Part shown: one piece after another, positions 179 to 58,709 of the stretch | Position numbering within the stretch: position 1 is the first letter of the stretch | How the letters are laid out: the number at the start of each line of letters is the position of its first letter | DNA from: a virus | DNA: 61,028 bases | IMG/VR virus record: IMGVR_UViG_3300003322_000515 | Span: 1-61,028 of that record | Direction: 5' to 3' (one strand) | The notes under the pieces: generated by a model | Told to the model about the DNA's origin: nothing | The model's input: the letters and a program-made list of their open reading frames with translations, nothing else | The model's database searches: none | Program-made: the position numbers and the translations under genes

Positions 179-1081
179 TTAGGCGGCGCCGAATAGGTCA
201 GGCGTAGGTGGCGCGTTGTCGTTCGCTGGTGGCTTCTTGGCGCGGGGCTTTAGGGAGCGATCGTCGGTGGCGGAAAGTCTAATAGACGCTGTCGCGGCGT
301 ATTCCGGATTCAGTTCGCAAAGGATTGCGTTCCTGCCCAACCTTGACGCAACGGCGCCAGTCGTGCCGCTACCTCCGAATGGGTCCAGAACCGTGTCGCC
401 CTCGATGGTAGTCGCCAAGACACATGGCTCCACCAGCCGCTCGGAGAATGACGCGCCATGGTCACTACGACCAGTCGGTGCGATTTGCCAGACAGAGCCG
501 TTCGCATAGGGAGGCAGCTTCGACTTGTCGAAACGGTAGCTCTTGCTCTTCGTGAGCAGGAAGATTTGTTCGTGGCGATTCGGAAGGCGATCAACGGACG
601 GCTCCGGCTTGCCGAAGTTCTTGGCCCATATTATTTCCTGCCTGAGAAACCAGCCATCGGCACGCAATGCGAAAGCGACCATCCACGGGATGCCGAACAT
701 ATCCTTCTCCTTGAGGTCTCCGTCGTTGATGGACAGGCGGGTCAGCCCGAGCTTTGTTGTCTCTGCCCACGAAAGCTCCTTGAACCCATTCAACGATGGC
801 TGATGGCTGCTTGATCGAATTCGCCTCCTGTTATTCGCGGTGTCGCCAAGATTCAGCCAGAGGGCGCCGTCGTCCGTCAACACCCGCCGCACTTCTCTAA
901 AGACGGAGACAAGCTGTGCCACGAAGTCGGAAGGCGTCATCTCCATGCCTATTTGGTCCGCGTGGCCGTAGTCGCGAAGCGCAAAATATGGAGGACTTGT
1001 CACGCAACAGTTCACGCTGCGCTCCGGCAGGGTGCGCAGGATGTCGCGGCAATCACCAAGTCTCAGATCAACCCGCATCAC
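179..1081 (-). CDS. DNA methyltransferase (beta-class N4-C/N6-A type, TSPPY motif)
   Basis: CCVTSPPYFALRDYG catalytic motif and DPFGGSGTT SAM motif. GTG 1081 / ATG 1078 overlaps the int stop. The C-terminus is PANDNAPPTPDLFGAA. Confidence 0.9.
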   Translation of the reverse strand: MMRVDLRLGDCRDILRTLPERSVNCCVTSPPYFALRDYGHADQIGMEMTPSDFVAQLVSVFREVRRVLTDDGALWLNLGDTANNRRRIRSSSHQPSLNGFKELSWAETTKLGLTRLSINDGDLKEKDMFGIPWMVAFALRADGWFLRQEIIWAKNFGKPEPSVDRLPNRHEQIFLLTKSKSYRFDKSKLPPYANGSVWQIAPTGRSDHGASFSERLVEPCVLATTIEGDTVLDPFGGSGTTGAVASRLGRNAILCELNPEYAATASIRLSATDDRSLKPRAKKPPANDNAPPTPDLFGAA

Positions 1082-2250
1082 CCTTCCCTCCTCTTCTTGT
1101 CCAAATCAGTCCGCTTGCCCATGCCCTCCGCAAACTTGCCAGACCACGCCAGGGGATCATCCAGCCACGGCAACCGAGCCCACAACTCGGGCACCGGCAA
1201 CTTGTTGATCGCTTCAATGAGTGGCGCCTGCGGCACGTTAGTGTAGTGACGGCTCATGTCATCCGCTGCGTGGCCAAGTATCTGGTCCTTGATGTGCGGA
1301 TGGACACCCGCGACAACCAACCCTGTCGAGCAACTGTGGCGGCCGGTATACGGGGCAATATCTTTAATGTCGCTCCGGCGGCGAGCGCCGTTGATCGCTG
1401 ACTTGAGGCCACCACCACCTCGCCCCTCTTCATCTGTCGCTATCTCCTCGTACGGTTCGCCGCGTGGCGTTCGAAATAGCCGCGGCTCGTCTTCCAATCC
1501 AGGCCGCTTCAGCAGGGACTCGAATATCGGTACCAAGAACTCATGGATCGGAACTCCTCGAGGCTCGCCTGTCTTTGTGTGTGTTAGCGTGATCCAGCGA
1601 CCGGAGACATTGACCTCGCCAACCTCAAGCGCGAATAGCTCGATCGGCCGCATGCCGGCGTAAAATAGCGTAGTCATCAGCATGGCCGGGCCTGGCGACA
1701 TGGCCGCAATGAACTTTGCGGCATGTTCGTATTCAACTGGAAATGTGCCGGCGCGGCGCTTCGCTAGGCGCACGACGTTCGTGCCCTTTGGCTTCTTCGG
1801 ACGCGACCACTGGCGAACATCTGCCCATCCGTTCTTAACGGCATGGTTCCAGACTGCGATGAATGGCGTGTAGCATTGACGATTGCGCGTTTCTGGTTGA
1901 GCATTTGGATAGAGTTTGCGCGCCGCCTCGTCCAAATCGTTTTGTTGTATGTCTTTCAGCTTGGTATCATAAAAGTAGTCTAGCAGGCCGTCGCGCGATC
2001 CGTCCTCATAAACGGAGCCGGTAAAGCGCTTATCTCCACCTGCCTTCCAATAGGAATCGACCGCTTGCGCAAATGTACGTGTGGCCTTCGGGCCGAACAC
2101 GGCGTCGCTGACGAGTTCAGCTTCTCGCTTTATGCGGAGCGCTTCCGCGACTTCTTTCTGCTCTGTGCGAGCAGACTCGCGGACAGCTTGTCCATGGACG
2201 GTGCCTGAGATCCACCAGACTTTGCCACGCTTGTAGAGTTTGAGGGGCAT
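1078..2250 (-). CDS. int: Tyrosine recombinase / phage integrase
   Basis: N-terminus MPLKLYKRGKVWWISGTV; C-terminal catalytic region GRHSCSTG...LGHAADDMSRHYT; adjacent to att. Confidence 0.92.
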   Translation of the reverse strand: MPLKLYKRGKVWWISGTVHGQAVRESARTEQKEVAEALRIKREAELVSDAVFGPKATRTFAQAVDSYWKAGGDKRFTGSVYEDGSRDGLLDYFYDTKLKDIQQNDLDEAARKLYPNAQPETRNRQCYTPFIAVWNHAVKNGWADVRQWSRPKKPKGTNVVRLAKRRAGTFPVEYEHAAKFIAAMSPGPAMLMTTLFYAGMRPIELFALEVGEVNVSGRWITLTHTKTGEPRGVPIHEFLVPIFESLLKRPGLEDEPRLFRTPRGEPYEEIATDEEGRGGGGLKSAINGARRRSDIKDIAPYTGRHSCSTGLVVAGVHPHIKDQILGHAADDMSRHYTNVPQAPLIEAINKLPVPELWARLPWLDDPLAWSGKFAEGMGKRTDLDKKRREG

Positions 2251-2441
2251 CGTAGAACATCCTTTATGGCTTCGATGTCTTTGTCTGTAAAAAGGATATC
2301 ACGGCCTCGCACCATGCATAGGCCGTGCTGTTTGGCGATCTTTGCAACGCCTCTGTTGGTAAGGCGAAGATATTCAGCCGCCTCGGCAAGAGTGTAAATC
2401 CTGCCGAGCGGCCCGTTGTTATCGTTGTCGTGGTGCCTCAT
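2130..2441 (-). CDS. xis: Excisionase-type helix-turn-helix DNA-binding protein
   Basis: YTLAEAAEYLRLTNRGVAKIAKQHGL HTH. Lies immediately upstream of int; the 3' end overlaps the int start in another frame. Confidence 0.7.
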   Translation of the reverse strand: MRHHDNDNNGPLGRIYTLAEAAEYLRLTNRGVAKIAKQHGLCMVRGRDILFTDKDIEAIKDVLRCPSNSTSVAKSGGSQAPSMDKLSASLLAQSRKKSRKRSA

Positions 2442-57118: not shown

Positions 57119-57751
57119 ATGGAAATTGTAGGAACGTTGAGAAATGCGCGCCGCGTGAGCGCGAGTGAAGATTTGCGCGGCCCATGCCTTCACGGGCAGG
57201 TCTACGGCGATACCAAGGGTCGCTTTCGTGACGGCGACTACATCACCACCAGCACGATCATGAGTGAAGATGGAGACGTCTTTAAAACACGATACAGCGC
57301 GTACAAGGTTGAGCATTGGGAGGGCGAGCCGGCTGGTCCTGTTGCTGCCAACGACAACAAGCCTGCCTATTCCCACGCCTCGGCAATCAACCTGTTTGCC
57401 GCAGACTGCCACGCAGCAAGCCGCAAGGCAGGATGGTACACGGATCTAGCCACTGGCAAGGCGCTTGATCGCAACGTGCCGGAAATGCTCTGCCTGATCC
57501 ACTCTGAGATCAGCGAAGCCATGGAGGGCTATCGCAAGTCCAAACCCGGCAAAGTCCTGATGGACGACAAACTGCCGAACCGGCCCATGGCAGAAGTAGA
57601 GCTCGCCGACGCCATGATTCGCATCGGAGACCTGGCAACCTTCCTAGGCTTTGATCTCGGCGGGGCGATCGTCGAGAAGATGGCCTACAACGCAACACGC
57701 GAAGATCATCGCATTGAAAACCGGCTCAAGACCGGCGGGAAGGCGTTCTGA
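57119..57751 (+). CDS. MazG-like nucleotide pyrophosphohydrolase with an N-terminal extension
   Basis: LIHSEISEAMEGYRK...EVELADAMIRIGDLA motifs; ANDN at 57347-57358 between the two halves; conserved leader. Confidence 0.75.
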   Translation: MEIVGTLRNARRVSASEDLRGPCLHGQVYGDTKGRFRDGDYITTSTIMSEDGDVFKTRYSAYKVEHWEGEPAGPVAANDNKPAYSHASAINLFAADCHAASRKAGWYTDLATGKALDRNVPEMLCLIHSEISEAMEGYRKSKPGKVLMDDKLPNRPMAEVELADAMIRIGDLATFLGFDLGGAIVEKMAYNATREDHRIENRLKTGGKAF

Positions 57752-58479
57752 TGTCCGTTATAACAAAATCGCAAAAACAGTATAACGACTACGTCATGGT
57801 GCCAGGCCTTGGAGCGCAACGCGTGCCACCCGAGAAGTACGTGCCGGCGAATGACAATGTTCCGTCGCCGACGGTCGTTTTTGACGAGAGTGGTGCATCG
57901 GCAGGCTTTGCGGTTGGCCACTATATCGGCCTCGATCGCCGTGAGGGAGACTTCATGGCCACTTACACCGGCCAGAAATACTGGCCGTGCGATCCGCGAT
58001 CGAGCGAAGTCTTCATCAAGGACATCGCGCATTCGCTGAGCCTGCAGTGCCGATATGCTGGCCACTGCATCCTGCATTACAGCGTCGCCGAACACAGCGT
58101 TCATATTGCTCGCTGGCTGTTGGATAAATATGGCCCGTTCATGGCCCTTCATGGCCTGCTGCACGACGCGCCAGAGGCGTATTGCGTTGACGTGCCTCGT
58201 CCTCTCAAACCTTGGCTGGCGAACTATAAGCAGATCGAGGAGCGCAACTGGCATGCTATCGCCGATCGCTACGGCCTATTGCGAGAGCTGCCGGCCGAAG
58301 TTCACGAAGCTGACAACCGCATCATCGCAGACGAGCTCGTCAATATGCGGCCGATGCCATGGCATGCGCGCCACTCGGATGGCTTGGGAATAAAGATTGG
58401 CTGCTGGTCGCCGCAGGCTGCCGAAGAGGAGTTCATGGCGACGTTCGAGGCTTTGACTGGCAGGAGGGAGGTGGCGTGA
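57751..58479 (+). CDS. HD-domain phosphohydrolase (YfbR-like 5'-nucleotidase type)
   Basis: SVAEHSVH...LLHDAPEAY..DVPRPLK motifs; ANDN at 57847-57858. Confidence 0.7.
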   Translation: MSVITKSQKQYNDYVMVPGLGAQRVPPEKYVPANDNVPSPTVVFDESGASAGFAVGHYIGLDRREGDFMATYTGQKYWPCDPRSSEVFIKDIAHSLSLQCRYAGHCILHYSVAEHSVHIARWLLDKYGPFMALHGLLHDAPEAYCVDVPRPLKPWLANYKQIEERNWHAIADRYGLLRELPAEVHEADNRIIADELVNMRPMPWHARHSDGLGIKIGCWSPQAAEEEFMATFEALTGRREVA

Positions 58480-58709
58480 TGGAGATAACCAAAAGGCAAC
58501 GGGATGCCTTATCCATTCTGGTGCGTCGCCATGATGATTATCCACACCAAGCCGGTTTTGCGACCGCGCATCTTGGCGAGAACACCACGGCGCTATTGAG
58601 GAGGCTTGCCCCTCTTGGTCTTGTTGTTGTGAGCAAGGGCGGGTCTGGGAGCCGGCAGTTTTTCAGGATCACAGATACGGGCCGCGCTGCGGTGAAGGAG
58701 GCAGCGTGA
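58479..58709 (+). CDS. Winged-helix (MarR-like) small DNA-binding protein, ends EAA
   Basis: The ATG at 58479 overlaps the upstream stop. RQRDALSIL...LLRRLAPLGLVV pattern. Confidence 0.55.
   Translation: MEITKRQRDALSILVRRHDDYPHQAGFATAHLGENTTALLRRLAPLGLVVVSKGGSGSRQFFRITDTGRAAVKEAA

Follow-up and report, generated by a model that had tools for sequence, protein, structure and literature searches.

Ala-Ala C-termini and an ANDN motif in non-virion proteins of a phage 16-3-like genome: candidate gene-encoded ssrA-like degrons

Introduction

A C-terminal Ala-Ala (AA) is the ClpXP degron of the alphaproteobacterial regulator CtrA, and engineered tags of the DAS+4 type combine a strong site for the adaptor SspB with a weakened ClpX site. 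The adaptor SspB-alpha reportedly recognises the head of the alphaproteobacterial ssrA tag. We describe here the protein C-termini encoded by IMG/VR virus record IMGVR_UViG_3300003322_000515, a stretch of 61,028 bp with a guanine-plus-cytosine (GC) content of ~56%, analysed over its full length and called the window below. About one quarter of its genes end in AA and the tetrapeptide ANDN, with which the alphaproteobacterial ssrA tag begins, is strongly over-represented in the proteins of the window.

The ssrA tag of A. tumefaciens, ANDNNAKEYALAA, is 13 residues long (PMC12493166, Table 1) and that of Caulobacter is AANDNFAEEFAVAA (PMC9393093). Work on Caulobacter calls an AA at the C-terminus "a hallmark of many substrates" of ClpXP and shows that its replacement by DD stabilises CdnL and FtsZ (PMC5324124). 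Non-polar C-terminal residues are recognised by ClpXP (PMC8973945), and a tag screen with the E. coli enzyme found Pro, His, Gly and short polar residues to be disfavoured at position -3 from the C-terminus, where they weaken the tag (PMC10862746). Phage proteins recognised by ClpX include the Mu transposase MuA, through its C-terminus, and lambda O (PMC8138137). At the nucleotide level, ATGA and TAATG overlaps that couple translation of adjacent genes show an NNA-TGA codon bias (PMC7246954).

The phage tails share with the alphaproteobacterial ssrA tag its ANDN head, its Ala-Ala-COOH end and an overall length of 11-15 residues. They differ in being encoded in-frame in ordinary coding sequences and made by normal translation, whereas the real tag is added by trans-translation; as scans of the window for tRNA and transfer-messenger RNA (tmRNA) genes (ARAGORN) and with Rfam found nothing, the tails are tag-like but not products of trans-translation. 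The tails are thus not tied to a tmRNA gene of the phage, and 31 related loci yielded no tmRNA as well. The middle residues also differ, position -3 is V, E, R, K, Q or G instead of the L or V of the tag, and the two halves occur separately too, as AA ends without ANDN and as ANDN far from the C-terminus. CdnL and FtsZ, native proteins from the same bacterial class, likewise end in AA-COOH alone, but they are single host regulators, whereas in the phage about one quarter of the proteome and ~45% of the early module have this end. The adaptor-binding head and sub-optimal C-terminal tripeptide of DAS+4-type tags have their counterpart in the phage tails and would make degradation adaptor-dependent, although the phage case is natural and binding of ANDN by SspB-alpha is putative here. 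MuA and lambda O provide the precedent of phage replication or transposition proteins handled by host ClpX via short terminal signals, yet these are individual proteins with non-ssrA-like signals and no proteome-wide convention. Of the 21 AA ends predicted by our gene caller, 14 lie on ATGA/TAATG overlaps, with GCA or GCG as last codon, but such overlaps predict neither the Ala at -2 nor the AA at free ends nor the contrast between early and virion genes.

Ala-Ala ends in the window

The window represents the genome of a temperate, siphovirus-type phage that belongs to the Rhizobium/Sinorhizobium phage 16-3 group. Its head module has 78-81% nucleotide identity to Rhizobium and Sinorhizobium phages, and its gene order and many of its proteins match those of AP-16-3 (61,037 bp), RHph_TM3_3_14B and 16-3. 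A first-pass annotation of the sequence had listed 21 coding sequences ending in AA, and every one of its coordinate pairs is indeed an open reading frame (ORF) terminating in Ala-Ala-stop, 19 on the plus strand and two, 179-1081 and 5556-5789, on the minus strand. Our own codon-usage gene caller predicts 89 genes in the window, of which 21 end in AA; it adds 9171-9389 (VAA) and skips 58479-58709, for a total of 22 AA-ending genes out of ~90 (~24%). These 22 genes, 58479-58709 included, are given below; a free end has no downstream start within 20 nt, and n is the size of the orthologue cluster.

179-1081, minus strand: DNA methylase (N6_N4_Mtase) ending in PANDNAPPTPDLFGAA; ssrA-like tail 179-226, ANDN 215-226
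5556-5789, minus strand: small left-arm protein ending GRAA, GTGA overlap; its sole orthologue ends FGRAA
9171-9389, plus strand: Cro-like small protein ending QVAA, absent from the earlier list; ANDN 9210-9221; n = 19, 95% with AA and 95% with ANDN
9386-9703, plus strand: protein ending TEGAA; n = 23, 87% with AA
9703-10881, plus strand: 392-residue protein ending RIAA; free end, TAA, next gene 478 nt away; ANDN 10339-10350
11360-12151, plus strand: AAA_24 ATPase ending GVAA; n = 27, 74% with AA
12378-12599, plus strand: small protein ending KDAA
13408-14256, plus strand: protein ending PLAA; free end, TAA, 58-nt gap; ANDN 14140-14151
15382-15651, plus strand: small protein ending GMAA
16601-17080, plus strand: sigma-70-like factor ending RMAA; n = 33, 64% with AA
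19841-20302, plus strand: protein ending QVAA
20299-20607, plus strand: protein ending GGAA
20604-21362, plus strand: protein ending KRAA; n = 25, 56% with AA
22442-23251, plus strand: second DNA methylase, ending in AANDNTPVATLKGAA; ssrA-like tail 23207-23251; n = 13, 100% with AA and 100% with ANDN
27430-27918, plus strand: protein ending AIAA; free end, 108-nt gap
28027-28788, plus strand: protein ending DLAA; free end; ANDN 28192-28203
30888-32471, plus strand: terminase large subunit ending NKAA; TAATG overlap with the portal gene
32471-33736, plus strand: portal ending in PANDNNPDDEAQAA; 13-residue ssrA-like tail 33695-33736
33733-34365, plus strand: prohead protease (S78) ending QDAA; free end
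39136-39519, plus strand: putative tail-assembly chaperone ending AQAA; TAG, free end
55506-56828, plus strand: 440-residue protein ending in AANDNVPAEQARAA; 13-residue ssrA-like tail 56787-56828
58479-58709, plus strand: small protein ending KEAA; weak PadR-like match

Internally the AA dipeptide has a frequency of 1.7% (binomial p = 2e-18 for the observed ends), and among non-gene ORFs of the same DNA 13/699 (1.9%) end in AA. The host was sampled with 300 kb of the S. meliloti megaplasmid/chromid pSymB (277 genes, 89,267 residues), where 14/277 genes (5.1%) have an AA end and where Ala is the terminal residue in 18% of cases, compared with ~12% Ala overall. This host replicon and the window thus do not have the same AA-COOH frequency (Fisher p = 8e-7). 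The initial estimate that about one AA end would be expected by chance is sound with respect to composition (~1.5) but too low against the host baseline (~4.6). Viral contigs of IMG/VR unrelated to the 16-3-like group have 7/635 AA ends (1.1%), and the control phages D3, phiCbK and PBC5 have 3/69, 1/40 and 5/45, respectively. Ala occupies 38% of the -1 positions and 31% of the -2 positions in the window but 5.6% of the -3 positions, so the effect is limited to the last two residues. It is found at TGA (14/54, 26%) and TAA (6/24, 25%) stops, and at 1/11 TAG stops.

Protein class and conservation

The AA bias follows protein class and is concentrated in non-virion genes. In the window 14/30 genes of the early/replication module (9171-29200) and 3/5 packaging and head-assembly genes have AA ends, versus 1/20 in the virion module (34448-50375), where 39136-39519 is the exception; the left arm has 2/17 and the right arm 1/17 (2/18 counting 58479-58709). 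Across 23 related prophage loci the split recurs, with 59/181 AA ends among the non-structural genes upstream of the terminase versus 14/250 among the virion genes downstream of the capsid (p = 1.6e-13). AA ends amount to 17% in AP-16-3, 31% in RHph_TM3_3_14B and 15% in 16-3, mostly to 15-29% in 27 Rhizobiales prophage loci and, in the early regions of 33 IMG/VR relatives, mostly to 30-45% per locus. The bias is absent, in small samples, from portal relatives of Rhodobacterales, Azospirillaceae, Rhodoblastus and Bacteroidota.

Within orthologue clusters AA is retained while the tails that precede it vary freely. The family of 9703-10881 (n = 23, lengths of 164-464 residues) has AA in 96% of its members at the end of 21 different tails, and orthologues of 27430-27918 display several different AA tails at uncoupled TAA, TAG and TGA stops. 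Where the stop is uncoupled, orthologues between them use all four Ala codons in last position. AA terminates 24/26 portal orthologues. In the portal and in both methylases the tails lie outside the Pfam domains, which stop at residue 377/421 (portal), 265/300 (methylase 179-1081) and 226/269 (methylase 22442-23251); these tails are Pro/Ala-rich and differ in length among orthologues. The tails of virion proteins vary as well, yet AA is avoided at their ends: capsid orthologues end ...QA, ...AAS or ...AASGG, and most prohead protease orthologues RQDAS. The virion-module exception 39136-39519 has a sub-threshold match to Phage_TAC_11, a tail family of the GTA-gp10 type (E 9e-4, 19.7 bits vs a cut-off of 27.8 bits), from which its candidate role as tail-assembly chaperone is proposed; 7/15 orthologues end in AA, with GCA, GCC, GCG or GCT as last codon.

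The ANDN motif and its coupling to Ala-Ala

ANDN occurs 22 times in the coding frames of the window, where 0.2 occurrences are expected, and is its top tetrapeptide (113-fold over expectation). It always lies in the coding frame, in 16/89 genes, with the consensus [A/P/V]-A-N-D-N-x-P, and is a protein-level motif since its codons vary. The sites are:

215-226 (minus strand), 9210-9221, 10339-10350, 13246-13257, 14140-14151, 17089-17136 (three sites), 18488-18499, 19652-19687 (two sites)
23207-23218, 23648-23659, 24341-24352, 26024-26035, 28192-28203, 33695-33706
56787-56798, 57347-57358, 57847-57858, 59586-59597, 59721-59732

AP-16-3, RHph_TM3_3_14B and 16-3 have 12-18 copies each, while ANDN is missing from the 89,267 host residues of pSymB and from lambda, D3, phiCbK and PBC5; lambda lacks ANDE as well.

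The first-pass annotation had proposed that AA, the end of ssrA tags recognised by ClpX, complements ANDN, and this link is now supported by statistics and by spacing. In the window 8/16 ANDN proteins end in AA vs 14/74 of the others (p = 0.02). At the level of clusters in four genomes the figures are 17/32 vs 24/158 (odds ratio 6.3, p = 1e-5), and a larger set, again by cluster, gives an odds ratio of 6.7 (p = 7e-9). The last tenth of the protein contains 154/333 unique ANDN sites, and where the protein ends in AA, the spacing between ANDN and the C-terminus has a sharp maximum at 11-13 residues (51/160 unique sites), the length of natural alphaproteobacterial tags. Four window proteins end in ANDN-x5-9-AA (x7 twice, x8 once, x9 once), namely the methylases 179-1081 and 22442-23251, the portal and 55506-56828, whose tails are given above; dozens do so in relatives.

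A scan of IMG/VR for ANDN-x7-AA-TGA retrieved ~60 ORFs of at least 100 residues (GC 0.52-0.67). Most ANDN-positive loci of IMG/VR have 20% or more of their genes in common with the 16-3-like set, so that an independent lineage is shown solely for a second portal family among these ORFs, which is 22-27% identical to the window portal and ends in ANDN-x7-AA in other viral contigs (e.g., ANDNRAKIDEDAA). We read the common end of the two portal families as convergence.

Alternative explanations

The AA ends could be the translation of a nucleotide-level preference for GCNGCN upstream of coupled ATGA/TAATG starts, an artefact of junctions or ribosome-binding sites (RBS). AA does peak at overlaps: the related loci pooled have 43% AA at ATGA/GTGA overlaps and 35% at TAATG-type overlaps as compared with 12.6% at free ends (12-18% across sets of relatives), and ~5-6% where the next start is 0-20 nt downstream, a zone in which the Shine-Dalgarno sequence must occupy the last codons. 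In the window the corresponding counts are 13/37 at overlapping ends, 8/40 at free ends and 0/12 with a start 0-20 nt downstream. Synonymous sites are conserved at the portal-protease junction GCCGCATGA and at the terminase-portal junction AAGGCGGCATAATGG (32459-32476; K-A-A-stop overlapping the portal ATG), the latter also found at the terminase-portal junctions of loci L001 and L005-L029 and kept even beside terminases that are ~25% identical, which suggests that modules are exchanged at breakpoints slightly within the 3' end of the terminase gene. At these two junctions the RBS does make a local contribution; the overall pattern is beyond its reach. Genes with no coupled start downstream still end in AA, the 20% of window free ends and the 12-18% of relatives exceeding the 5.1% of the host (p = 0.003 for the window). 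Free-end AA uses GCC, GCA, GCG and GCT roughly as internal Ala does. At overlaps the last codon is GCA or GCG but the -2 codon follows ordinary Ala usage, third position included, and over two overlap geometries AA tracks the stop and not the start. Above all, at overlapping junctions of the 23 related prophage loci AA is found in 21/45 cases (47%) in non-structural modules vs 3/60 (5%) in virion modules (p = 5.7e-7), a ten-fold difference at the same geometry. The early argument that an overlap fixes only the last base of the final codon is thus borne out, as this constraint predicts neither the Ala at -2 nor the free-end AA nor the difference between modules, and the GCNGCN preference that had been offered as an alternative is opposed by the free ends, the codon usage and the module contrast. 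It also leaves the association with ANDN and the 11-13-residue spacing with no nucleotide-level explanation. We reject a junction artefact, now very improbable, on the tests of junction class, Ala codon usage and module; the data support a signal in the protein itself, positioned relative to the stop codon and not to the downstream start. An effect on translation termination, Ala-Ala-stop being a context for fast peptide release or ribosome recycling in Rhizobiales that phage genes, strongly selected for expression, exaggerate, would fit the milder excess seen in the host and the restriction to the last two codons, where effects of the nascent peptide and of the P site are known (PMC7246954). 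The genes for capsid, tail and connectors, which are the most highly expressed and tightly coupled, however lack AA (1/20 in the window, 14/250 in relatives), the equal rates at TGA and TAA reveal no specificity for a stop codon or release factor, and a survey of 1,582 bacterial genomes links expression with C-terminal Lys and Arg, hydrophobic residues being depleted (PMC7246954). The coupling to ANDN and its spacing are left unexplained here too. On the equal stop-codon rates and on the virion genes we disfavour this possibility and regard it as improbable.

A protein-level signal could be read by something other than ClpXP, AA-COOH and ANDN docking on another host or phage hub instead of marking proteins for this protease. 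Candidates are ClpA, Lon, a PDZ-type protease, the phage trypsin-like peptidase 54529-55344 or a scaffold of the replication factory. Such docking would agree with the presence of other C-terminal motifs in these phages, DDxIPF resembling the tip of single-stranded DNA-binding protein (SSB) in a helicase and clamp-binding-like QLSLF/DLFG in methylases, with the fact that the phage encodes its own beta clamp and trypsin-like peptidase, and with ANDN being found before those motifs and near N-termini. It has to contend with the architecture and length of ANDN-x7-AA, which reproduce the ssrA tag (PMC12493166), whose known readers are SspB and ClpX, and with preferences at -3 that in part resemble ClpX rules (PMC10862746). 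A Pfam scan of ~60 of the ~90 window proteins revealed no SspB, ClpX, ClpP or PDZ domain, the trypsin-like peptidase being the only potential phage-encoded reader. We consider a different reader possible but unlikely. It is hardly credible, finally, that the AA ends are historical accidents, quirks inherited within one mosaic lineage with no present function. Many AA ends are indeed common by descent among 16-3-like phages, and the AA of the window prohead protease is not conserved, most orthologues ending RQDAS. Yet the 22 AA genes of this one genome are mostly unrelated to each other, AA stays while adjacent residues and tail lengths turn over, it recurs in the unrelated portal family, and it is depleted in virion proteins, whose tails vary too.

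Proposed function

We lean towards the hypothesis that the terminal AA is a selected C-terminal protein signal and that these ends are probably gene-encoded, ssrA-like ClpX(P) degrons, with ANDN as the likely site for SspB. The AA-COOH would be the ClpX-binding end of an ssrA-type degron, and ANDN, a copy of the start of the alphaproteobacterial tag, could plausibly tether the protein to SspB-alpha. The two together, as ANDN-x5-9-AA-COOH, would form gene-encoded tags of 11-15 residues; with a greater distance between them they may act as looser two-part signals. Host ClpXP would then turn over or remodel the carriers, which are regulators, replication and DNA-modification enzymes, the terminase and also the portal, and virion proteins, which must persist, lack the signal. 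The sequences establish the bias, its dependence on protein class, its retention amid changing tails, its coupling to ANDN and the tag-like architecture, from which ClpX and SspB as readers and degradation as the outcome are inferred. At free-end xAA tails Ser is found at -3 at 0.1 times expectation, Thr, Pro and His at 0.3, Gly at 0.5 and Leu at 0.8, and I, E, R and K at ~2 times. The depletions match the E. coli ClpXP rules in part, and the weak residues at -3 suggest adaptor-dependent degrons like engineered DAS-type tags.

Several observations weigh against a degron function, which is predicted for these proteins from their sequences. In E. coli a ClpXP degron requires AA, but AA alone does not make one, and Leu is favoured at -3 (PMC10862746); the -3 residue in the window is mostly V, E, R, K, I or G, with Gly in 5/22 AA proteins, and many tails may therefore be weak degrons. 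The portal and terminase carry AA although they are needed late in infection. ANDN is also seen ahead of different C-terminal motifs (DDxIPF, DLFG) and close to N-termini, so its reader could be other than SspB. The host itself has a raised AA baseline of ~5%, which would follow from AA being a hallmark of ClpXP substrates (PMC5324124). AA is 2-3 times commoner at overlapping junctions (~35%) than at free ends (12-20%), so that junction class modulates its rate and some junction or RBS contribution is possible, and Ala codons are kept at the nucleotide level at the terminase-portal and portal-protease junctions.

Gene content and additional observations

The Pfam scan assigned to the window an integrase, an S24/HTH repressor, two N6/N4 DNA methylases, an AAA_24 ATPase, a beta clamp, two sigma-70-like factors, a superfamily-2 helicase and a primase-polymerase, as well as the late genes for the large terminase subunit (TerL), portal, S78 prohead protease, HK97-type capsid, trypsin-like peptidase and deoxynucleoside monophosphate kinase.

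Several of these products have other terminal motifs. In methylases a QLSLF/xDLFG sequence that resembles beta-clamp-binding motifs lies between ANDN and the terminal AA, as in the ...PDLFGAA end at 179-226 (minus strand) and in relatives such as the methylase 36002-36841 of locus L005, which ends in ANDNSPQLSLFGDAA. The phage-encoded beta clamp (14315-15379) ends MPMRV. The superfamily-2 helicase (17927-19741) terminates in DWERDMMDEVPF, a conserved acidic D-D-x-[IV]-P-F tail shared by 34 orthologues (L125-L157) that resembles the C-terminal tip of bacterial SSB and has ANDN 16-20 residues upstream. A separate family of small proteins, with 27 members in relatives, ends E[AV]PF. The sigma-70-like protein 17077-17583, adjoining the AA-ending sigma-like gene 16601-17080, has three tandem ANDN in its N-terminus, MSVAANDNDNNANDNNANDNRPAAF. 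The trypsin-like (Trypsin_2) peptidase 54529-55344 is conserved in 16-3 (p036) and RHph_TM3_3_14B, and the 16-3 orthologue carries ANDN and ends in AA.

Lambda (J02459, our locus L038) has an unexpectedly high 8/59 genes ending in AA. They are B (portal), bet, ea10, ral, ninB, ninC, ninG and orf 29118-29285; the split of 1/21 structural vs 7/38 non-structural genes is not significant. A de-duplicated lambda-like set has 6.4% AA ends, and enterobacterial temperate phages may have a milder form of the same habit.

The IMG/VR scan also uncovered apparent genuine tmRNA tag frames ending ...ALAA in low-GC contigs, e.g., ANDNYASEMALAA and ANDNSSVEFALAA (L166, L169, L177, L202, L207, L212 and L226, among others), which look like phage-borne or prophage-adjacent ssrA genes. 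In related prophages one to four tRNA genes (Met, Pro, Thr, Leu) adjoin the packaging module ~3-4 kb upstream of the portal (L010, L012, L013, L017, L021, L022, L024, L025, L029, L030); the window has none.

Concluding remarks

The AA degron and the ssrA tag are already known. Their gene-encoded, proteome-wide use by a phage clade was not found in the literature searched, which contained no description of ANDN or of an AA-COOH bias in phage proteomes. As a speculative extension, more doubtful than the degron function of the tails, the clade of 16-3-like temperate Rhizobiales phages might practise proteome-wide mimicry of the ssrA tag, either as a programme of protein lifetimes or as titration of SspB/ClpXP, that is, a hijacking of host proteolysis. 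Dozens of non-virion proteins would then be equipped with ANDN as a head that binds SspB, with AA-COOH as an end that binds ClpX, or with the two together.

ANDN and AA-COOH offer a simple sequence rule that separates non-virion from virion proteins in these phages, and hundreds of natural tails form a library from which the specificity of alphaproteobacterial ClpX/SspB could be learnt. The proposal is testable in a classical model, phage 16-3 and S. meliloti. AA degrons and ssrA tags are understood on individual proteins, and their use throughout a virus would be a new way of coupling to, or jamming, host ClpXP/SspB. If mimicry is real, titration during infection or induction would stabilise the normal targets of ClpXP, cell-cycle regulators among them, and make the removal of trans-translation products less effective, and degron mimicry would represent a previously undescribed hijacking of host proteolysis.

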